Of a stretch of 37,682 nucleotides of DNA, positions 1-36,748 are shown piece by piece. Under the pieces are notes generated by a model. It ran no database searches. It saw only the letters and a list, made by a program, of their open reading frames with translations, and was not told the DNA's origin. The translations under genes and the position numbers were made by a program. Source of the stretch: a virus (Duplodnaviria > Heunggongvirae > Uroviricota > Caudoviricetes); the IMG/VR virus record IMGVR_UViG_2778261545_000003, one strand, 5' to 3'. How positions within the stretch are numbered: the stretch's first letter is position 1; the number at the start of each line of letters is the position of its first letter.

Positions 1-1053
1 TTACGGGGTAATGCCAACCTCTGCCGCCACTTTGTCGCCACTTGGCAGCGTTGCCAGAGGATTGAAACGGAGCGCCGTTTCCAGATGATCCGGTGCCAGA
101 TGTGCGTAACGCATAGTCATTTTTATGTCGTGATGTCCGAGGATTTTTTGCAAAGCAAGGATATTTCCACCCGACATCATGAAATGCGCCGCAAACGTAT
201 GGCGCAGAACGTGTGTCAGTTGACCGCGAGGGAGCACGATAGACGTTTTTCCCATCACAGATAAAAATTGAAAATAGCAGTCTGTGAAGAAATTGAACCC
301 ATCAAGCGCCATGATCTCTTCGTAAAGTTCTTTACTGATAGGGATGCTTCTGTTTTTCTTCCCCTTCGTTCTTACAAAGGTAATTCGGTATTTGGTCACC
401 TGTGAGCGGGTAAGATTTACAGCTTCACGCCAGCGTGCGCCTGTGCTTAAGCATATCTTAACTACCAGTGCCAGAATTGGGTCCTGACGTTTGCAATCAG
501 CCAGTAATTCAACAATCTGCTCATGGGTAAGCCATGCCATCTCTTTTTCTGCGATGGTGAATTTTCGCATGTTCTCCAGTGGGTTCGGATACGACCATTC
601 GCCCAGGCGGGATAGTTCGCTAAAAACACTACTAAGATAGCTTTGCTCCAGGTTAATGGTGACCGGGCTTGCTCCTTTCTTCCATTTTTCGCTGAAGTAG
701 ATCTCTCCTGTCAGGCGTTTATCTCGATAGTGGGCAAACATTTTAGAGGTGAGATCGGTTGCAATGGGATTTCCCAGGGCGTCAACCATCAACAGCAATT
801 TGTCATAGACATGCTGCCCAGCTGTCAGAGATTTACCATGTAGTTTGAACCATAGTTCAACCACGTCTTTCAGTGTTCGACGATCCACTGATTCACCCAG
901 CCAGGGTTTTGCTTCGGTTTCTTCCATCGTGTGACGCTCAAAAGCCAGAGCTTCGCCTTTGGTGGCGAATTGTTTACGCACACGACGTCCACTACGTCCG
1001 GCAGGGTAACATTCGCAAAGCCATTTTCCTGTGGTGAGTTTTCGTACTGCCAT
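1..1053 (-). CDS. int: Tyrosine integrase (P2/186 family)
   Basis: 350-aa ORF with tyrosine-recombinase C-terminal signature (..HVLRHTFAAH..GHHDIKMTMRYAHL..); located at prophage end, downstream of repressor on the same strand. Confidence 0.9.
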   Translation of the reverse strand: MAVRKLTTGKWLCECYPAGRSGRRVRKQFATKGEALAFERHTMEETEAKPWLGESVDRRTLKDVVELWFKLHGKSLTAGQHVYDKLLLMVDALGNPIATDLTSKMFAHYRDKRLTGEIYFSEKWKKGASPVTINLEQSYLSSVFSELSRLGEWSYPNPLENMRKFTIAEKEMAWLTHEQIVELLADCKRQDPILALVVKICLSTGARWREAVNLTRSQVTKYRITFVRTKGKKNRSIPISKELYEEIMALDGFNFFTDCYFQFLSVMGKTSIVLPRGQLTHVLRHTFAAHFMMSGGNILALQKILGHHDIKMTMRYAHLAPDHLETALRFNPLATLPSGDKVAAEVGITP

Positions 1054-1078
1054 AAAAAAGCCCTCATATCAGAGGGCT
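1054..1078 (-). terminator. Intrinsic terminator-like hairpin directly abutting the int start codon
   Basis: On the minus strand AGCCCTC-tgatat-GAGGGCT followed by TTTTTT and then the int ATG; sits between the cargo ORF stop (1140) and int. Confidence 0.5.
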
Positions 1079-1139
1079 AAATTTAACTGTATATTTAAAC
1101 AGTTATCAATGTATGTTTAGGGTGAAATAAACATTGGCC

Positions 1140-2129
1140 TCACTCCTGTGCTTTTTCAGCGGTACTTGGCTTTAGTTTTTCTTTGGTTGAATCCCATAAA
1201 GATTGGATTCCCGGAGGGAGTTCTGTTTTGTCAGAAAATGCAGAGTTACCAGACATATTCCAGTCTTTAAAGACTAACACAGCATCTTCTTTTGTTGACG
1301 TGGAACCATAAATTTGCAGGAATACTTGCCCAAACATTAGTGCATGTCTTCTATCTTTTCTCAAAATTGATTCATGGGTATATTTTTTAGAGTTGCCAAG
1401 GCAAATATATGCTAGCCAAGAAAGAATGGAAATACCAATTAAACCACGTGTGAAAAAATAAAATAGCTCAAAGCCTTTAACATTGTTGAAGTCAATTGTG
1501 GCGTAGAGTGTATAAAATGATGCACATACAGCAAGTAGCCCAAAAATGCAGCCAGTAAAAGCCCATACTTGCGACATTTTAATGAAATATAAGTCATCTG
1601 AACTTAGTTCACTTTTAACGCTATCGACATATCCTGGTATTTTCTCATCAATCCTTTCTTGTTGTACTCGGCTTTGTAATTCGCTGTTAGATGCTTCAAG
1701 TTGCTTTATTCTAGATACGGCTTGCTCAATAATTGCTTCTTTTTCAGAATTTAGTTTTTCTAAATTCTCATTCCGAAGATGTAACGTAGCTTTGGACTCT
1801 TCAGCCTCCAATAAACGTTTGGTATATGATCGCATTATCTCTCGAAGATGTTTTTGTTCTTTTATTAATTCATCTATCTTATTGTTTTCATTAATAAAAA
1901 TATCTCCAGCTTTATCGCTGTAGTTCATTTTTTCTTGCTGGGCTAATTTCCAGTAGTATTCTCTGAATTTATCAAGTTCACCTTTTTTTAATAAGTCGAC
2001 TAAGTAGGCGCGTTCATTTTCATTAAATTTATGTAGATTTTCATTTAAAATATTATAAAGATCTTTCCATTCGCAATTAACTTTTTCAACATAATCGTTG
2101 TTTTCATTTTTTTTATTTTCAGAATTCAT
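1140..2129 (-). CDS. Cargo protein, N-terminal coiled coil plus two predicted transmembrane helices (candidate superinfection-exclusion/abortive-infection effector)
   Basis: ORF in the track is 1140..2207; the internal ATG at 2129 has an AAGGA Shine-Dalgarno and avoids overlap with cI. Product about 329 aa; N-terminal 200 aa rich in E/K/L/N heptad-like sequence, then hydrophobic stretches (VWAFTGCIFGLLAVCASFYTLYA and LFYFFTRGLIGISILSWLAYICLG). AT-rich relative to neighbours. Confidence 0.6.
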   Translation of the reverse strand: MNSENKKNENNDYVEKVNCEWKDLYNILNENLHKFNENERAYLVDLLKKGELDKFREYYWKLAQQEKMNYSDKAGDIFINENNKIDELIKEQKHLREIMRSYTKRLLEAEESKATLHLRNENLEKLNSEKEAIIEQAVSRIKQLEASNSELQSRVQQERIDEKIPGYVDSVKSELSSDDLYFIKMSQVWAFTGCIFGLLAVCASFYTLYATIDFNNVKGFELFYFFTRGLIGISILSWLAYICLGNSKKYTHESILRKDRRHALMFGQVFLQIYGSTSTKEDAVLVFKDWNMSGNSAFSDKTELPPGIQSLWDSTKEKLKPSTAEKAQE

Positions 2130-2139
2130 GTATGTTCCT

Positions 2140-3078
2140 TTAAATTTCCTTTGAAAAAACGCAACAACATTTTGCGATGGTTGTAATGTCTTCAAGCTTA
2201 CAAACAAAATCAGTTGTATCTGATGTGATTTTTACTTTTCCAACTGGAATTCTTGTTAATTTTCTTAAACTTACTTTACCTTCAATCTCAATCAACCAAC
2301 TACCATCTGAAACATCATCATATTCTGTATCTGCAATAAAGGTTTTTCCTTCTGCGGTAACTCCAATAGGTTTTTTCAATCCGGAAGGTATAAGCGTCTT
2401 GTCAAATGCTAAGTAGCCTTCATCATGTAATTTACCGTCAATGATTGTTTGGTGTTTAAGTTGGGCTACAGAGCTGGAATTATCGATAAATTTGGGGCCA
2501 TTGCCGTTTGTGAGCCAGAGTAATGAAGTTCCTGTTTCAAGAGCGCATTGAATGATCCAATCGCTAGGAAACGTGTCTCGTAAGTACCTGTTTGCTACAG
2601 TGCTTTTTGAAACCTGCAAATGGTTTGCTAGGGCTTGTCGGGTGCTAAAGCCGTAGGCTGCGACTAAGCGATCAATTGCCGCCTTCCCTCCTTTATTAGG
2701 ATTTATGCTGGTCTCGATTGGGAACTTTTGGGCTATTGAGTTAGTTCTATCCAGGTCATCAGATTTGGTATGGGCTAAACGTTCATCATTTAATAAAACT
2801 GAGGATGATTCACAGCTGATTCCCGATGCCAACCAGTCGATAGATGCGCCGGTCTCTATACTGCAAATTATCACCCAGTCAGCAGGAAATGTGTCACGAG
2901 CATACCTGTTAGCCATCGTGCTTTGTGAGATACCCAGATGATTGCAAAATGCTTGCCGCGAAGTAAAACCATACGCAGCAAGTATACGCTCAATTACTTT
3001 CTGTCCCCCACGGTTTTGCATTATTGAAGTTTTTAGACTCTCGCTAATATGGCGAAATGTGTTTTTTTGAGTTGACAT
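2140..3078 (-). CDS. cI: 186-type CI-like immunity repressor with tandemly duplicated N-terminal DNA-binding domain
   Basis: 312-aa ORF divergent from apl/cII. Two about 60-aa repeats (VIERILAAYGFTSRQAFCNHLGISQSTMANRYARDTFPADWVIICSIETGASIDWL and AIDRLVAAYGFSTRQALANHLQVSKSTVANRYLRDTFPSDWIIQCALETGTSLLWL), about 60 percent identical, matching the phage CI-repressor N-terminal HTH pattern. Confidence 0.7.
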   Translation of the reverse strand: MSTQKNTFRHISESLKTSIMQNRGGQKVIERILAAYGFTSRQAFCNHLGISQSTMANRYARDTFPADWVIICSIETGASIDWLASGISCESSSVLLNDERLAHTKSDDLDRTNSIAQKFPIETSINPNKGGKAAIDRLVAAYGFSTRQALANHLQVSKSTVANRYLRDTFPSDWIIQCALETGTSLLWLTNGNGPKFIDNSSSVAQLKHQTIIDGKLHDEGYLAFDKTLIPSGLKKPIGVTAEGKTFIADTEYDDVSDGSWLIEIEGKVSLRKLTRIPVGKVKITSDTTDFVCKLEDITTIAKCCCVFSKEI

Positions 3079-3087
3079 AACCGTTAT

Positions 3088-3125
3088 GAGATCCTAATCT
3101 CCGTTTTGTGAAGTTCTGGTCACAA
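3088..3125. promoter_or_regulatory. Candidate operator inverted repeats in the cI-apl switch region
   Basis: GAGAT-ccta-ATCTC (3088..3101) and TTGTGA-N8-TCACAA (3106..3125) lie in the 88-bp gap between divergent cI and apl. Confidence 0.3.
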
Positions 3126-3166
3126 TTCAAACCGGCTCACCACAAGCCAATAGGAGATGTTGCATC

Positions 3167-3388
3167 ATGACCCCTAACATTTCAATAACTCTGAATACGC
3201 CACATGTCACAATTGAGCGTTATAGCGAACTTACTGGTCTTTCAATCGATACAATTAACGATATGCTGGCTGACGGTCGCATCCCTCGGCATCGCCTTCG
3301 GAAAGACAAGAAAAGAGAAAAGGTGATGATCAACCTTGCTGCTCTTACCGTTGATGCACTTACTGATTGCAATGTTGTATTCAACTAG
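3167..3388 (+). CDS. apl: Apl/Cox-like excisionase and switch regulator (small HTH protein)
   Basis: 73-aa ORF with AGGAG RBS, first gene of the rightward operon divergent from cI; HTH-like segment [24 protein letters not shown]. Confidence 0.6.
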
Positions 3389-4971: not shown

Positions 4972-5825
4972 GCACCATCCTGAAATGGGCGGGAAATAAA
5001 ACCGCCATTATGTCCGAACTGAAAAAACACCTTCCTGCTGGCCCGCGACTGGTTGAACCTTTCGCGGGTTCCTGTGCTGTGATGATGGAGACGGATTACC
5101 CCAGCTATCTTGTTGCGGATATTAATCCTGATTTAATCAACCTCTATAAAAAGGTTGCTGCTGATTGCGAGGCGTTTATATCTCGTGCCAGAGCTTTATT
5201 TGAGGAAGCAAACAGGGAGTTGGCTTATTACAACATAAGGCAGGAGTTTAATTACTCCACTGAAATTACTGATTTCATGAAAGCGGTATATTTCCTGTAT
5301 CTCAATCGTCATGGTTACCGTGGGTTATGTCGTTATAACAAGAGCGGGCATTTCAACATTCCATACGGTAATTATAAAAATCCGTATTTCCCTGAAAAAG
5401 AAATTCGCGCATTTGCAGAGAAAGCCCAGCAAGCAACGTTTATCTGCGCCAGCTTTGATGAAACGCTGGCGATGCTGCAGGTGGGGGATGTGGTGTATTG
5501 CGATCCGCCTTATGACGGTACGTTTTCCGGCTATCACACTAACGGCTTCACTGAAGATGACCAGTATCACCTGGCATCTGTTCTTGAATATCGATCATCA
5601 GAAGGTCATCCAGTCATTGTTTCTAACAGTGACACATCCCTGATCCGTTCGCTGTATCGAAATTTCACTCACCACTACATCAAGGCAAAACGCAGCATCG
5701 GCGTGTCGGCTGGCGAGAGTAAATCTGCAACAGAAATCATCGCTGTTTCTGGGGCGCGCTGCTGGGTGGGATTTGATCCTTCGCGTGGCGTGGATAGTTC
5801 TGCCGTGTACGGAGTGCGTGCATGA
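4968..5825 (+). CDS. dam: DNA adenine methyltransferase (Dam-like, N6-adenine)
   Basis: N-terminal SAM-binding region (ILKWAGNK...PFAGSCAV) and DPPY catalytic motif (VYCDPPYDG); GGAGG RBS before ATG 4968. Confidence 0.85.
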
Positions 5826-8236
5826 GCCATGCTGATATGAACAACTGCAGCGGCTTTAACGAGGCCGCCGCAGCATTCTCATGGAACAGCCCGAAAAAGG
5901 CTATTAACCCTTATCTGGACCTGGCGGAAGTTGCGCCGGTTTCTGCGCTTTCAAACCTGATCACTCTGTACGCTGCCGATAACGAGCAGGAACAACTGCG
6001 CCGCGAGGCACTGAGTGATCAGGTTTGGGAGCGTTATTTCTTTAATGAATCCCGTGATCCTGTCCAGCGCGAAATGGAGCAGGATAAGTTCATTAGCCGG
6101 GCAAAGTTGGCGCATGAGCAGCAGCGTTTTAACCCGGACATGGTCATTCTGGCAGACGTTAACGCCCAGCCTTCCCATATCAGCAGGCCGCTGATGCAAC
6201 GTATTGAATACTTCAGCAGCCTTGGCAGGCCAAAGGCTTATTCCCGCTATTTACGTGAGACGATTAAGCCATGTCTGGAACGGCTGGAGCATGTACGCGA
6301 CAGTCAGCTATCCACTTCTTTTCGCTTTATGGCAAGCCATGAAGGGCTGGACGGCCTGCTGATTCTGCCTGAAATGAGTCAGGATCAGGTGAAACGCCTG
6401 TCCACCCTTGTTGCTGCGCATATGAGCATGTGCCTTGATGCAGCTTGTGGCGATTTGTATGCCACCGATGACGTTAAGCCAGAAGAAATCCGCAAGACAT
6501 GGGAAAAGGTGGCAGCAGAAACCCTGCGACTGGATGTCATACCGCCTGCGTTTGAGCAACTCCGCCGGAAAAGAAACCGCCGTAAACCCGTGCCCTATGA
6601 ACTCATTCCGGGTTCGCTGGCGCGTATGTTGTGCGCCGATTGGTGGTACCGGAAATTATGGAAGATGCGTTGCGAATGGCGGGAAGAGCAGTTGCGTGCT
6701 GTTTGCCTGGTCAGCAAAAAAGCATCTCCCTATGTCAGCTATGAAGCCATGATGCATAAACGTGAGCAGCGCCGTAAGTCGCTGGAGTTTTTCCGTTCTC
6801 ATGAACTGGTGAACGAAGACGGCGACACGCTGGACATGGAGGATGTGGTAAACGCCAGCAGCAGCAACCCTGCGCATCGCCGCAATGAGATGATGGCCTG
6901 TGTTAAAGGTCTGGAGCTTATCGCGGAAATGCGCGGTGACTGCGCCGTTTTCTACACCATCACCTGTCCGTCACGTTTCCATTCCACGCTAAATAACGGC
7001 AGGCCCAACCCGACCTGGACAAATACGACGGTAAGACAAAGCAGTGATTATCTGGTCGGCATGTTTGCTGCATTTCGTAAGGCGATGCACAAAGCCGGAT
7101 TGCGCTGGTATGGCGTGCGGGTGGCTGAGCCGCATCATGACGGTACAGTTCACTGGCACCTGTTGTGTTTTATGCGCAAAAAAGATCGCCGCACCATTAC
7201 TGCTTTGTTGCGTAAGTTTGCCATTCGTGAAGACCGCGAGGAGCTGGGTAATAACACGGGACCACGCTTTAAGTCTGAGCTGATAAACCCGCGCAAAGGT
7301 ACGCCAACAAGCTACATCGCGAAATACATCAGTAAGAACATTGACGGGCGTGGTCTGGCTGGCGAGATCAGCAAGGAAACGGGTAAATCCCTGCGTGATA
7401 ACGCTGAATACGTTAATGCCTGGGCGTCTCTGCATCGTGTTCAGCAATTCCGCTTCTTTGGCATTCCGGGGCGTCAGGCTTACCGTGAACTGCGATTGCT
7501 GGCTGGTCAGGCGGCAAGGCAACAGGGGGACAAAAAAGCAGGTGCGCCGGTACTGGATAACCCGCGCCTTGATGCAATCCTGGCTGCTGCTGATGCTGGT
7601 TGTTTTGCCACCTACATCATGAAGCAGGGCGGCGTACTGGTTCCCCGCAAATATCACCTCATCAGAACTGCTTATGAAATCAACGAAGAACCGACCGCAT
7701 ATGGCGATCACGGTATTCGTATTTATGGCATCTGGTCACCCATTGCAGAGGGCAAGATCTGCACTCATGCGGTGAAGTGGAAAATGGTTCGTAAGGCCGT
7801 TGACGTTCAGGAGGCGGCAGCCGACCAGGGCGCTTGCGCCCCTTGGACTCGTGGCAATAACTGTCCCCTTGCTGAAAATTTGAACCAACAGGAGAAAGAT
7901 AAATCAGCTGATGGGGACACCAGAACGGACATTACCCGCATGGATGACAAGGAGTTGCACGATTACCTGCACAGTATGAGCAAAAAAGAGCGCCGGGAAC
8001 TGGCAGCAAGGTTACGCCTGGTTAAACCGAAACGGCGTAAAGACTACAAACAGCGAATTACAGACCATCAGCGACTGCAGCTCGTCTATGAGCTGAAGTC
8101 CAGAGGATTTGATGGTAGCGAGAAAGAGGTCGATGTACTCCTTCGCGGCGGCAGTATTCCGTCAGGAGCAGGCCTGCGTATCTTCTATCGGAACCAGCGT
8201 TTGCGGGAAGATGATAAGTGGCGGAACCTGTATTAA
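5822..8236 (+). CDS. A: Replication initiation protein A (rolling-circle HUH endonuclease)
   Basis: 804 aa with HUH motif ([10 protein letters not shown]) and paired-tyrosine motif (YIAKYISK) typical of P2 A / phiX174 A initiators; start overlaps dam stop. Confidence 0.9.
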
Positions 8237-9088: not shown

Positions 9089-9619
9089 TTAACCTTGTAT
9101 AGTTATTTGAATATTTTCTTCATTAACACCAAAGTATAGGGCTAGCCCTGCTTTTGCCTCCTGAAGTGTTAACGGCTTAACTACATTTTCTTCTTCTTCT
9201 TCGTACTCATCACCCGCTTGATCGACAATCGAATTAGTCGGGGTTAATTTGGGAAGAGCTTTAAATTCCAACTTGTCAGCCTCAATGCCAATGTCTTTGA
9301 GGTTGCGATAAGAAACGGGATTCCGATTGCCATCCCATTGTCCTGGGATGTCAATTTCAGCATAAGAATTGATGTTTATGATCCAGCGTTTAGGGTTTTC
9401 TGGAGCCCTGCTTACTCCCGAGATTCGACCGATCATAAAAGCATGATGATGTTTTGCTTCTTGTGATCCCCAGTCCTTTCTCGAATTTTGTACACAAACT
9501 AAATATTCGTGCTTAGCTGCATGGCTGGCGTCAAGTCTCCATGCTTGGCTTCCCCCTGTGTTCAAAATCTCTGTTAAACCACGAGCAGTAAGTACAGTAA
9601 TACAGTTGGTAGTAGCCAT
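9089..9619 (-). CDS. Hypothetical cargo protein (176 aa) in the variable region between the SOS operon and cos
   Basis: Clean ORF on the opposite strand with acidic stretch EYEEEEEN; AT-rich; no recognisable motif. Confidence 0.55.
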   Translation of the reverse strand: MATTNCITVLTARGLTEILNTGGSQAWRLDASHAAKHEYLVCVQNSRKDWGSQEAKHHHAFMIGRISGVSRAPENPKRWIININSYAEIDIPGQWDGNRNPVSYRNLKDIGIEADKLEFKALPKLTPTNSIVDQAGDEYEEEEENVVKPLTLQEAKAGLALYFGVNEENIQITIQG

Positions 9620-10176: not shown

Positions 10177-11091
10177 ATGCCATACCAATTGGTAGAGCTT
10201 AGCCCCGTAGCTAACGATCTTGAACAGTTAGGAACCAAAGAGAAGTTTTGGTTCTATTTCTCCGATGACACTGTAAATTTGCAGTTGTTTAAGTACTCTA
10301 GGCCAGGTACTGGCGAGCATTGGTCTGAAAAGTGTGCTGCTGAGTTATGTCATTTGCTTAACATTCCACATGCTAGCTATGATTTGGCGCGATACAATGG
10401 TCGATTCGGTGTGGTGACTCAGAATATCATTCCATCTGGTTTCCGGATGGTAATGGGAAATGAAGTGCTTCACAGTTCGACATTCGATTATCCTGGGCCT
10501 TTACAAGCCGGGGAAAAGCCGGTAAGGGTCAGAGAACACACTGTCACAAGGGTCTTGGGTTGTTTAGATAGGGAATCTATCAAGCCTCCTCCGAGTGTAT
10601 ATGATCTAACCGGGCTAAATGCAGCAGATGTATTTTGTGGATATTTGATGCTCGATGCACTTGTGAGTAATCAAGATCGCCACCATGAAAATTGGGCAAT
10701 CATGCTTAACAATGAAACTGGTGAGCAGTTTTTGTGTCCAACATACGATCATGCCGCTAGTTTAGGAAGGGAGATGTTAGATGATGAGCGTAACGAACGG
10801 CTTAATACTAAAGATAAAAATCGACAAATCCCATGTTTTGTAAGAAAAGCTCGCTCTGAGCTATTCAAAGCAAAAACTGATAAAAAGCCCTTGCTGACTG
10901 TTGAAGCATTTCAACATGCAGTTGAAGGGAGAGTTGCCGCTCGCGACCATTGGTTAGGTAAGTTGAGCGTTTTAACAGAAGATTCCATTACAGATGTGTT
11001 TAACCAAGTGCCTTCATCGTGTATATCCGACAGTGCACGTAGATTTGCAACGTTAATGGTAATGGAAAATCGCAGAAGGTTACTAGAATGA
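10177..11091 (+). CDS. HipA-like / PI3-4K-like small Ser/Thr kinase (cargo)
   Basis: 304 aa; catalytic-loop-like LVSNQDRHHENWAIM (DRH..N) and downstream YDHAASLG (metal-binding Asp), plus N-terminal LGTKEKFW; AGGGA RBS; stop overlaps the next gene by 4 nt. Confidence 0.55.
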   Translation: MPYQLVELSPVANDLEQLGTKEKFWFYFSDDTVNLQLFKYSRPGTGEHWSEKCAAELCHLLNIPHASYDLARYNGRFGVVTQNIIPSGFRMVMGNEVLHSSTFDYPGPLQAGEKPVRVREHTVTRVLGCLDRESIKPPPSVYDLTGLNAADVFCGYLMLDALVSNQDRHHENWAIMLNNETGEQFLCPTYDHAASLGREMLDDERNERLNTKDKNRQIPCFVRKARSELFKAKTDKKPLLTVEAFQHAVEGRVAARDHWLGKLSVLTEDSITDVFNQVPSSCISDSARRFATLMVMENRRRLLE

Positions 11092-11828
11092 CTAATACAA
11101 ACTCCGTTTACGTCGCATGGCAGGCACCAGATACCAGAGACTGGCATGTTGTTGGTAACTTGCAAGAGCGCAAATCGGGGTATGTTTTCAGGTATACCAA
11201 AGGTGCTCTTAAATCTTCTAAATTTACAAAGTTTAGCGGCATGAGTGATGTTCGTGAAACTTATGTATCGGAAGAATTGTTTCCTCTTTTTAAAAATCGC
11301 CTTTTATCACCGAGACGTCCAGAGTATCCGAGTTTCATTAAATGGCTTGGATTTGAAGAAGATAAGGTAAATCCTATCGATATTCTTGCTCGCTCGGGAG
11401 GCTTACGAAGCACTGATCAGCTGCAGATTTTCAAAAAAATTGATTTTGATTCTGATGGTAACTTTGAGCATTTTTTCTTCTTACATGGACTTGGTTACTT
11501 GAATAGCTTAGCTAATGCTCGTGTATCTGAATTGAAACCGGGGCAAATTTTGCGTCTTTGCTTGGATCTTCAAAATGAATACGATGGGGATGCTGTTGTC
11601 GTTCGTGCAGATAAACCAGCTGAAATCGTTGGTTACTGCCCTAGGTATTTAAGTAATGACATCAAGAAGATGTTATTGGATGATCCAAAATCAATCACTT
11701 TAACGGTCGAAAAGATTAGCGATGATGCTCCTCATAACTATCGGTTATTATGTAAATTATCAGGGGTACTAAGCCAAGCCTGTCAATCGACGCTGATTCC
11801 TCAAGATGAGTTTGAACCTATTGAGTAA
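11088..11828 (+). CDS. Protein with C-terminal HIRAN-like domain (cargo, partner of the kinase)
   Basis: 246 aa; C-terminal LQNEYDGDAVVVRADKPAEIVGYCPRYLSNDIKKMLLD fits the HIRAN pattern (N.YD.nAi.V...........lGY.PR..........L); translationally coupled to the upstream kinase gene. Confidence 0.5.
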   Translation: MTNTNSVYVAWQAPDTRDWHVVGNLQERKSGYVFRYTKGALKSSKFTKFSGMSDVRETYVSEELFPLFKNRLLSPRRPEYPSFIKWLGFEEDKVNPIDILARSGGLRSTDQLQIFKKIDFDSDGNFEHFFFLHGLGYLNSLANARVSELKPGQILRLCLDLQNEYDGDAVVVRADKPAEIVGYCPRYLSNDIKKMLLDDPKSITLTVEKISDDAPHNYRLLCKLSGVLSQACQSTLIPQDEFEPIE

Positions 11829-20660: not shown

Positions 20661-21476
20661 TCATATTTTTAATTTTTTATGGATATGCTCCATCCCTAAA
20701 TTAGATATCTCTTTTTTTAGCTGGGTTTCACTTGCAGTTATCCAGTTTTTTCCACAGTTTGGTAGAAGCATCTCGCTACTTGACGGATTGATAAGTTTTA
20801 CTTTTTCATTCTTTATAATTTTGTTTTTCAAATAACTTTTACTTATTAAGGCTGATTTTTCAGTTATAACGAGATAAAAAAATATGCTTCCAAAAAATAT
20901 ACCTTTTAAAATAATACCGCTGCGTAACAGAACAGGGTCATTTTTGGTTATTCTCATTTTAAAGGGAGAGCAAAGGTTGTCTTCACTTGTAGGTATATTA
21001 AGTTCACTTTTTTGCTCGTCAGTAAGTTTAAGAGGCATGAGCAGTCCAGCGAAGAGCATGACATCTTTTTCTGAAGGCAAAGGTTCTCCGCGGAGAATAT
21101 AATCTTTATATGCGCCAAAAATATGTGTCGATGGATCATTGACCGCGCTTGCCGAGTTGTAAGAAATTTTCATTAACCAGCGTAGCAATAAATGATAATC
21201 ATAAGTTATAGTCGTTTGTGTCTTTAGATAAAGTTGGGTTAAGAAACCGTTTCTGGCTAAAAACTGACTTCCATAATCATCTAAAAAACTTAATGCTCCA
21301 CCATTGCATGTTTTACAAACATCGGCAATTGTTGCCTCACCACCAATTATATCATTTGCTCTCTCGTTCCAGCCTATAAAACGATCTCCAGATTCTTTTT
21401 GATATTTATATATAAATTTAGGGATAATATGTTCTCTTTCTATTATTCCATCTTGCTCGCAATATCTGCAGTGCAT
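20661..21476 (-). CDS. Cargo protein with N-terminal HNH-like (His-Me finger) nuclease motif
   Basis: 271 aa; CRYCEQ...EHIIPKF...GG...CKTCNGG arrangement typical of HNH endonucleases; strongly AT-rich, opposite strand, inserted between S and the V late promoter. Confidence 0.55.
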   Translation of the reverse strand: MHCRYCEQDGIIEREHIIPKFIYKYQKESGDRFIGWNERANDIIGGEATIADVCKTCNGGALSFLDDYGSQFLARNGFLTQLYLKTQTTITYDYHLLLRWLMKISYNSASAVNDPSTHIFGAYKDYILRGEPLPSEKDVMLFAGLLMPLKLTDEQKSELNIPTSEDNLCSPFKMRITKNDPVLLRSGIILKGIFFGSIFFYLVITEKSALISKSYLKNKIIKNEKVKLINPSSSEMLLPNCGKNWITASETQLKKEISNLGMEHIHKKLKI

Positions 21477-35062: not shown

Positions 35063-36748
35063 TTATCCTAATCCTGGCCATACCATGACGATGATTGTCC
35101 CTGCCAGCGTCAGCAGGACGTTGGCGATTGCGTAGGTGCCCGCATAGCCCAGCGCAGGGATGTTACTGCGAGCTGTATCACTGATGATCTCCATTGCCGG
35201 CGCGCAGGTGCGTGCGCCCATCATTGCGCCGAACAACAGTGCGCGGTTCATTCGCAATACATAAGCACCGAACAAGAAACAGATAACCACGGGCACAAGA
35301 CTGACAATTAATCCGGCAATCAACATCTGACCGCCAATCGCGCCCAGGCCGTTATTAATACCGCTACCGGCGCTCAGACCAACGCCTGCCATAAACACCA
35401 TCAAGCCGAACTCTTTCACCATGCTTAATGCACCTTGCGGAATGTAACCGAAGGTCGGGTGGTTAGCACGCATAAAGCCCAGCATAATTCCGGCGAATAA
35501 CAACCCGGCAGCGTTCCCCATGCCGAAACTGAATGTGCTGAACTGGAAGGTGATCATCCCGATCATCAGCCCAATAACAAAGAAGGCGCAAAATGCCAGC
35601 AGGTCAGTGACCTGGCTGTGAATCGAGATAAAGCCGATGCGATCGGCGATGGTTTTTACGCGACGGGCATCACCGCTGACTTGTAAAACGTCACCTTTGT
35701 TAAGCACGACGTTGTCATCTATCGGCATCTCAATCTGGCTACGAATGACGCGGTTAAGGAAGCAACCGTGATCGGTCAACTTCAGTTGTGCGAGACGTTT
35801 ACCTACAGCGTTATGGTTTTTAACGACCACTTCTTCAGTGACGATACGCATGTCGAGAAGGTCACGATCGAAAACTTCTTTACCGTTACGGAAGCTGGGA
35901 TCGAGTCGGGCATGGGCGTCGGGATAGCCTACCAACGCTATTTCATCGCCCATTTGTAGCACGGCATCACCGTCTGGATTTGCCAGAATCCCGTTACGTC
36001 GAATACGTTCAATGTAGCAGCCGGTTTGTCGATAAATACCCAGTTCACGCAGATTTTTGCCGTCGGTCCAGGCCACCAGCTCCGGGCCGACGCGATAGGC
36101 GCGGATCACCGGTAAATAAACCTTACGGTTGGCATCAGTGTCCAGGCCACGTTCGCGGGCGATTTGCTGGGCGCTGGTCTGTAAGTCCTGATGCTGCAAT
36201 TTCGGCAAGTAACGCGCACCAACAATCAAACTCACCAGACCGATTAAATAGGTTAAGGCATACCCGAGGCTCAGATTATCCAGTGCCAGTGAGAGCTGCC
36301 TGCTTTCCATGCCGGAATGACGCAGTGTATCGCCAGCACCGACCAGAACCGGTGTCGACGTCATAGAGCCTGCTAACATACCGGCCGTCAGGCCAATATC
36401 CCAGCCAAACAGCTTACCTAACCCTAAGGCGATCACCAGCGCACTGCCAACCATCACCAGTGCTAACATTAGGTAATTTTTCCCATCGCGAAAAAAAATG
36501 GAAAAAAAGTTCGGTCCGGCTTCGACCCCGACGCAGAAAATAAACAGCATAAAGCCAAGATTAAGCGCATCGGTGTTAATGCTGAAATGTTGTTGGCCTA
36601 ATAACAGCGATACGACTAAAACGCCAATGGAATTACCCAGTTGGATCGAACCAAGTCGTAACTTTCCGAGACATAGCCCAAGCGCGAGGACCACAAATAA
36701 TAACAGAATGTAATTCCCATTTAACAATTCGGCGACGTTTATATTCAC
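35063..36748 (-). CDS. ybjL: Putative transport protein YbjL (host)
   Basis: 561-aa polytopic membrane protein recognised as E. coli YbjL. Confidence 0.85.

Follow-up and report, generated by a model that had tools for sequence, protein, structure and literature searches.

In phage lambda the genes of the RexAB abortive-infection system follow cI on the lysogenic transcript, and the system couples a cytoplasmic sensor to an inner-membrane effector that collapses membrane function. In lactococcal prophages, Sie2009 sits between the repressor and integrase genes. Here we describe orfX, a gene for a 329-amino-acid (aa) protein that lies between the cI repressor gene and the integrase gene int of a 186/P2-like prophage; the prophage is complete and of the E. 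coli/Klebsiella type. It is contained in IMG/VR virus record IMGVR_UViG_2778261545_000003, a stretch of 37,682 nucleotides (nt) referred to below as the window. From its sequence and those of its relatives, orfX is a good candidate for a new single-gene anti-phage effector.

The likeness to RexAB, whose mechanism is summarised elsewhere (bioRxiv 10.1101/2024.07.02.601686), is one of place and of proposed logic: orfX lies directly 3' of the repressor gene and is co-oriented with it, and it may likewise combine a cytoplasmic sensor with an inner-membrane effector. The two differ in construction, as orfX encodes one polypeptide with two predicted transmembrane (TM) helices whereas Rex consists of two proteins, of which RexB has four TM helices, and searches of Pfam, PADLOC and the PDB revealed no similarity of orfX to RexA or RexB in sequence or fold.

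A second comparison is with PD-Lambda-1, reported as a defence gene by Vassallo et al. 2022 (PMC9519451). It too is a single gene, and phage KP12 carries it in the identical cI-int slot, on a backbone whose int is 96% identical to that of the window. It ends, however, in a T5orf172/MUG113 nuclease-like domain, where orfX has a module of two TM helices and a C-terminal domain. The same paper also describes a membrane-anchored defence system with a central coiled coil (DUF4041) in a passage that leaves the system unnamed; from the matching DUF4041 and T5orf172 domains we infer that this system is PD-Lambda-1.

Sie2009, SieA of P22 and Glo of K139 resemble orfX as membrane-associated, prophage-expressed proteins of the lysogeny module. 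They differ from it in that orfX is predicted to be overwhelmingly cytoplasmic and has relatives linked to post-entry immune NTPase systems, and no homology of orfX to any of the three was detected. The category to which orfX would belong, a prophage lysogeny-module membrane effector in a defence hotspot, is well known. The family of the orfX protein and the module conserved in it appear, by contrast, to be new, and searches of the literature and of profile libraries returned no description of either.

A two-helix membrane protein with a conserved C-terminal half

The gene runs from an ATG at 2129 to a TGA at 1142-1140, and PGAP annotates the identical 329-aa open reading frame (ORF) of E. coli Ecol_224 as the hypothetical protein WP_060615102.1. 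An alternative TTG start at 2207, which would give 355 aa, was rejected: it overlaps cI and lacks a Shine-Dalgarno (SD) sequence, and both PGAP and the homologues use the ATG. The gene and the parts of its product are as follows.

1140..2129, minus strand: orfX cargo gene, coding for 329 aa and ending in TGA; the product belongs to PHROG 2628 and is WP_060615102.1 (hypothetical protein) in E. coli
1890..2129, minus strand: aa 1-80, variable N-terminal helical domain of three short helices (19% mean pairwise identity)
1683..1889, minus strand: aa 81-149, variable stalk of coiled coil (pLDDT above 90; matched in profile searches by the GCN4, myosin and BST2 coiled coils)
1569..1682, minus strand: aa 150-187, conserved juxtamembrane helix QQxRIDEKIPxYVxxVK..DD..F..MS, the first element of the conserved module
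1494..1568, minus strand: aa 188-212, predicted TM helix 1 (TM1), with invariant W189 and G193
1467..1493, minus strand: aa 213-221, short periplasmic loop, from hydrophobicity and the model
1395..1466, minus strand: aa 222-245, predicted TM helix 2 (TM2), with invariant R228, G229, G232 and W238
1230..1394, minus strand: aa 246-300, highly conserved cytoplasmic C-terminal domain (dN/dS up to 0.06)
1143..1229, minus strand: aa 301-329, variable C-terminal end of low confidence, from the model and identity

An AlphaFold2 model of the monomer, built from 112 homologues (mean pLDDT 73.6, pTM 0.37), is all-helical. Three short helices at aa 8-71 are followed by an uninterrupted helix at aa 81-209, a 9-residue turn, a helix at aa 219-274 and two further helices at 280-297 and 308-319. 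The long helix passes from the coiled coil through the juxtamembrane segment into TM1, with pLDDT above 90 at aa 90-150, and the helix at aa 219-274 is TM2 extended, in the model, into the cytoplasm. Hydrophobic segments at aa 188-212 and 222-245, with a 9-aa loop between them (Kyte-Doolittle 19-residue windows up to 1.86), agree with the two hydrophobic helices described in an earlier note on this DNA. As six K/R residues follow TM2 and an N-terminal signal sequence is absent, both termini should be cytoplasmic; in the predicted topology about 270 of the 329 aa are cytoplasmic and about 9 residues periplasmic. The note had also described about 200 aa of coiled coil and a short tail. A coiled coil is indeed present, but it spans only about 105 aa and is preceded by the 80-aa helical domain, and the tail of 84 aa that follows TM2 is not incidental, its aa 246-300 being the best conserved part of the protein.

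Across 112 family members, mean pairwise identity is 19% for aa 1-80 and 20% for aa 81-149, then 61% for the juxtamembrane helix, 44% for TM1, 72% for TM2, 86% for aa 246-300 and 36% for the last 29 residues. The C-terminal domain carries the motif KKYTHESIxRKDRxHALMFGQVFLQIYGST.TKEDA..VFKDWNMS..SAF, and E253, H262, G267, W290 and N291 are invariant in the family past TM2. Judged by conservation, aa 246-300 is the functional core of the protein, while aa 1-80 presumably form a specificity or sensor part. The invariant polar residues R228, E253 and H262, inside and after TM2, suggest that the TM hairpin is more than an anchor. With dN/dS at 0.19-0.25 over the whole gene (aa 1-149, 0.27-0.33; aa 150-300, 0.00-0.06), orfX is under purifying selection and is not a chance ORF.

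The sole library match of orfX is the hidden Markov model of PHROG 2628 (E 1.1e-88; protein residues 22-326 against positions 13-311 of 314 in the profile), a family of unknown function. Pfam, NCBIfam and PADLOC gave no match above noise and a profile search of the PDB returned coiled-coil proteins only. Among the candidates set aside, Pfam DUF2207_C, Rod_CreS and MKT1_N fell below the cut-off and reflect coiled-coil or TM composition, NCBIfam Omp28_seleno was noise (18 bits against a cut-off of 200), PADLOC JukA and LeoBC reached E of about 0.5 on orfX, and matches of relatives to LeoBC, LmuB, JetC and ZorA are a coiled-coil effect.

A first family search collected 167 proteins, all from Enterobacterales and nearly all annotated 'hypothetical', two of them under spurious coiled-coil names. 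A match to orfX over 80% or more of its length is present in 24 of 5,426 genomes, and the best matches listed include complete E. coli genomes with the same gene at 99.6-99.9% identity. A tblastn search of 50,697 phage records with the orfX protein found nothing, though the flanking DNA matched many Klebsiella phages, which indicates that the family is rare in that phage collection.

The C-terminal module recurs in bacterial conflict systems

Searching 1.84 billion representative sequences with a profile of aa 150-329 extended the family well beyond its first members, to 464 clusters (at 50% identity) at E up to 1e-3 and 289 at E up to 1e-10. Every full-length match listed carries the module at its C-terminus, and the N-termini vary. 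Its motif, Y.HE[SA][IL].R.DR.HA..FG..[YF]L.[IV]YG ... F..WN ... AF, is present in orfX, and 59 diverse members all have H262, A263, G267 and W290. Most module proteins are about 310-330 aa long and come from Vibrio, Aeromonas, Shewanella, Pseudomonas and others; all are hypothetical and devoid of Pfam domains. In four relatives the head is MgtE_N-like.

Two fusions are informative. P0205 joins a TIR_2 domain (67.7 bits) to the module within an operon that also encodes DUF5691, AAA_5 (MoxR-like), DUF5682, Imm51 and VWA_CoxE proteins, and this operon is flanked by a Type ISP restriction-modification gene, AAA_15 with DUF4276, and PemK. P0179 joins an EAD11 adaptor domain (71.8 bits) to the module and lies immediately 5' of an Mrr_cat-nSTAND3 NTPase gene on four independent contigs. 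By definition, an effector-associated domain is one that is fused to an effector which an NTPase conflict system recruits (PMC7159879). The earlier note had offered a membrane effector as a speculation, and the fusion of the C-terminal two-TM module to TIR and EAD11 within NTPase conflict operons lends that idea independent support.

The V. cholerae protein P0282 is encoded by a superintegron cassette amid toxin-antitoxin cassettes, and V. cholerae superintegron cassettes are rich in defence genes (bioRxiv 10.1101/2024.07.02.601686). A possible relative is the V. cholerae cassette system Brigantia, which has been described as a TM protein lacking any known domain. P0367 of P. aeruginosa lies between genes for PLDc/RE_NgoFVII (restriction-like), AAA_13 and HATPase_c proteins. 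At the P. aeruginosa locus, a second gene, of 313 aa and without a Pfam match, lies two genes upstream of the orfX relative (1004-1945 of L072) and may be its paralogue.

Taken across these contexts, the module may be an unnamed and widespread membrane-effector domain of bacterial immunity, a proposal that we make tentatively and rate a little short of an even chance. Two modes of use are envisaged: on its own after a coiled-coil or helical sensor head, as in the cI operons of prophages, in integron cassettes and in defence islands, and as the recruited or fused effector of STAND systems (coupled through EAD11) and MoxR-vWA systems (fused to TIR). If so, prophages of clinical E. coli and Klebsiella would carry a new single-gene abortive-infection family with orfX as its prototype.

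Resemblance to SLATT proteins

The earlier note had likened the two-TM architecture to SLATT domains, and this kinship found no support. No Pfam SLATT model (SLATT_1 to SLATT_6 and SLATT_fungal) matched the window protein and 24 relatives at E up to 1, or 59 distant relatives at E up to 0.01, about 84 members being scanned overall. For profile-profile comparison, which was confined to SLATT_5, an alignment of 12 sequences was seeded from a SLATT_5 protein of a Vibrio integron array; hhalign scored two alignments of the module against it at probabilities of 0.5% and 0.08%. In a Foldseek search of BFVD, SLATT proteins rank 7-8, with E 0.37-0.39 and TM-scores of 0.15-0.23.

The resemblance thus appears to be one of design, with no homology detectable in these comparisons. 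Both families combine a two-TM hairpin with a cytoplasmic helical part, and both occur in conflict systems and in TIR-type domain fusions; in orfX, by contrast, the module is C-terminal, after a long coiled coil. As for association with nucleotide-signal enzymes (SMODS, SLOG, TIR), none is encoded adjacent to orfX in the window, and one distant relative is the TIR_2 fusion. A SLATT_5 cassette (8546-9346 of L071) lies about 2.5 kb from the cassette of the orfX relative in the same V. cholerae superintegron, so that two unrelated families of two-TM effectors coexist in one array.

The orfX gene and the presumed lysogenic operon

The genes and signals that border orfX are the following.

2140..3078, minus strand: cI repressor, 312 aa, with two Phage_CI_repr helix-turn-helix (HTH) domains and Phage_CI_C; presumably opens a cI-orfX lysogenic operon
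2136..2140, minus strand: SD sequence AAGGA, 6 nt 5' of the orfX ATG, overlapping the end of the cI stop codon by one base
1054..1078, minus strand: terminator-like hairpin AGCCCTC-TGATAT-GAGGGCT with a T-run, touching the int ATG; backbone in common with KP12
1..1053, minus strand: int, tyrosine integrase of the P2/186 type, which bounds the cargo slot downstream

The cI stop codon, TAA at 2142-2140, is followed by a 10-nt gap to orfX (AGGAACATAC), and the interval contains no promoter-like site. Together with the co-orientation of the two genes, this spacing makes it very probable that orfX is on the lysogenic transcript; cI-orfX is presumed to be a lysogenic operon, the gene layout being consistent with cotranscription. 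The GC content of orfX, 33.2% (26.7% at third codon positions, GC3), is below that of the whole window (50.6%) and of int (47.9%), which suggests a foreign origin; the low-GC tract extends over the last third of cI (32.8%). In these respects the earlier reading of the locus stands: a low-GC insertion between cI and int, with an ORF that begins 10 nt past the cI stop behind an SD sequence of its own and is co-oriented with cI.

That reading had also placed a terminator hairpin after the gene. A hairpin is present at 1078-1059, beginning 61 nt past the orfX stop, with a 7-bp stem (5 GC; dG -13.3 kcal/mol, z -2.5), a TTTTTT run and then the int ATG at 1053. It does not, however, belong to the cargo. 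The hairpin and the spacer up to 1136 are also found in phage KP12, whose cargo gene differs (homology 1-1136), and by this comparison they are int-proximal backbone, separate from the cargo.

At the other end of orfX, a weak terminator-like hairpin (5-bp stem and T-run; 2160-2176, minus strand) lies within the last cI codons, 5' of the orfX SD sequence, and could attenuate read-through into orfX. The two HTH domains of cI are in tandem at about aa 20-93 and 133-196, N-terminal to Phage_CI_C. Yersinia and Brenneria relatives have a single-HTH cI of 187-209 aa, and the cI of phage 4LV2017 is of the same long form as that of the window.

The cI-int slot as a defence hotspot

The arrangement around orfX is stable. 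In all 43 IMG/VR loci with a homologue, cII-apl is divergent from cI-orfX-int, with an extra 1-2 kb of cargo ahead of int in about 8 of them. The cI-orfX-int order recurs in 5 of 8 loci from species-representative genomes, and the cI-orfX spacing is 10-31 nt in all loci examined.

What the slot holds, on common flanks, is variable. In KP12, where the int region is 96% identical up to 1136, the cargo is a 558-aa PD-Lambda-1 protein (7e-120; DUF4041 and T5orf172/MUG113), and in 4LV2017 it is an unrelated 349-aa protein; the conserved module profile matched neither. In Brenneria corticis the PADLOC candidate PDC-S20 (KAP_NTPase) adjoins the orfX homologue, and the Yersinia rohdei slot holds a bPH_3-SHOCT protein and one more gene. 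From these comparisons the cI-int slot behaves as a defence hotspot, in keeping with reports of a cI-int hotspot in Vibrio K139-like phages (Rousset et al., PMC9122126) and, in a 2026 survey, of an integrase-primase interval holding 8% of P2 defence systems (PMC13586616). PD-Lambda-1 in KP12 and PDC-S20 in Brenneria also bear out the earlier suggestion that this is a position typical of defence genes.

In some genomes orfX has outlived the phage. Enterobacter and Pectobacterium remnants of a few kb retain full-length orfX amid fragmented cI and int, the Enterobacter allele being read on 21 contigs, and Chimaeribacter carries orphan orfX copies amid ordinary chromosomal genes. That the gene is kept once the phage has decayed speaks for an advantage to the cell.

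Across loci L026-L068, compared over window positions 1137-3166, cI and orfX diverge in step (cI/orfX identities of 99/100%, about 59/55% and about 55/45%) whereas int, apl and cII stay at 98-100% identity. Their co-variation against constant flanks indicates that cI and orfX travel as a single exchangeable module.

Proposed function and alternatives

We propose, at an about even chance, that orfX is a lysogen-expressed single-protein membrane effector, acting in abortive infection or exclusion and resembling RexAB in position. In the lysogen, orfX would reside in the inner membrane as an inactive coiled-coil oligomer. A product or activity of a superinfecting phage would be sensed via the variable N-terminal part and the signal passed down the continuous stalk-TM1 helix, upon which clustered TM hairpins and C-terminal domains would perturb the membrane by leak or depolarisation. 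Phage development would then stop, making orfX a one-protein counterpart of lambda RexAB.

Several points weigh against this proposal. Pore formation is deduced purely from a monomer model of modest confidence (pTM 0.37), no PADLOC model matches the conserved module, and the module of the TIR fusion may do no more than anchor TIR in the membrane or oligomerise it, without being the effector. The presumed sensor, in the N-terminal half, is under relaxed purifying selection (omega about 0.3), with no demonstrable diversifying selection. The co-variation of cI and orfX, finally, could instead mean that the role of orfX is linked to the immunity region.

That last point leads to the rival in which orfX serves the prophage's own immunity or lysis-lysogeny circuit, for example as a membrane-anchored partner or modulator of cI, or else host physiology through lysogenic conversion. 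Besides the co-variation against constant int, apl and cII, the tight 10-31-nt gap between cI and orfX in all loci examined is in its favour. Yet physical linkage alone can account for co-variation, orfX is intact where cI is a pseudogene, the family occurs without any prophage in Chimaeribacter and in a Vibrio integron cassette, and module relatives reside in defence islands, all of which make a circuit role rather improbable. Non-suicidal superinfection exclusion, in which an inner-membrane protein blocks DNA entry or ejection and leaves the cell unharmed (compare P22 SieA, lactococcal Sie2009, T4 Imm and HK97 gp15), would explain the inner-membrane hairpin and the location in the lysogeny operon, recalls the repressor-integrase position of Sie2009, and would suit constitutive expression in the lysogen better than a latent toxin does. 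We regard it as unlikely, because about 270 of the 329 aa are predicted to lie in the cytoplasm and about 9 residues in the periplasm, and because the module relatives are wired to TIR, EAD11, STAND and MoxR-vWA systems that act post entry.

The persistence of orfX in decayed remnants, and of a relative amid the toxin-antitoxin cassettes of the Vibrio superintegron, would also be expected of a membrane protein of the addiction or toxin kind, which would secure the prophage or its remnant by post-segregational killing and have no anti-phage role, and small TM-hairpin proteins are often toxic. But no conserved antitoxin gene is adjacent, orfX being a single gene between cI and int in the window, and a strongly conserved 55-aa cytoplasmic domain with a variable, sensor-like head is atypical of simple membrane toxins; we consider this explanation very unlikely. 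Lysogen-expressed prophage genes bear on phage therapy, as they decide which other phages can infect clinical E. coli and Klebsiella. Pfam, NCBIfam and PADLOC all miss the orfX family, although its module reaches 464 clusters in Gammaproteobacteria and beyond. If its activity is confirmed, orfX would found a new single-gene defence family, supply a new membrane-effector domain for annotating defence islands and integron cassettes, and offer a compact sensor-stalk-effector in which to dissect how a signal passes along one continuous helix into the membrane.

Prophage setting and further cargo genes

At the left end of the window, int, orfX and cI, all on the minus strand, are followed by the divergent apl/cox-like gene (3167-3388, plus strand) and cII, and then rightward by genes for Fil, DUF5347, a Dam methylase and replication protein A. 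The flanks of orfX are 85-99% identical at the nucleotide level to Klebsiella phages, KP12 and 4LV2017 among them.

Other candidate cargo lies elsewhere in the prophage. The canonical P2 hotspot between the replication protein gene (5822-8236) and the portal gene holds the PADLOC candidate two-gene system PDC-M03A/B (2e-122 and 7e-93) at 10177-11828 on the plus strand; its B protein has a HIRAN domain and its A protein a weak HipA_C-like match. The same A-Q hotspot contains a 176-aa ORF (9089-9619, minus strand) without a Pfam or PADLOC match. In the late-gene region, a 271-aa ORF (20661-21476, minus strand) is antisense to the neighbouring late genes, has a weak HNH_5 match (E 5e-4) and may be a further cargo gene. 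At the far end of the window, past the prophage late genes, is a host-type permease gene with Asp-Al_Ex and TrkA_C domains (35063-36748, minus strand). A permease gene of the same type borders the decayed Enterobacter remnants that keep orfX (L021-L024), which suggests that the window prophage and these remnants have a common integration site.

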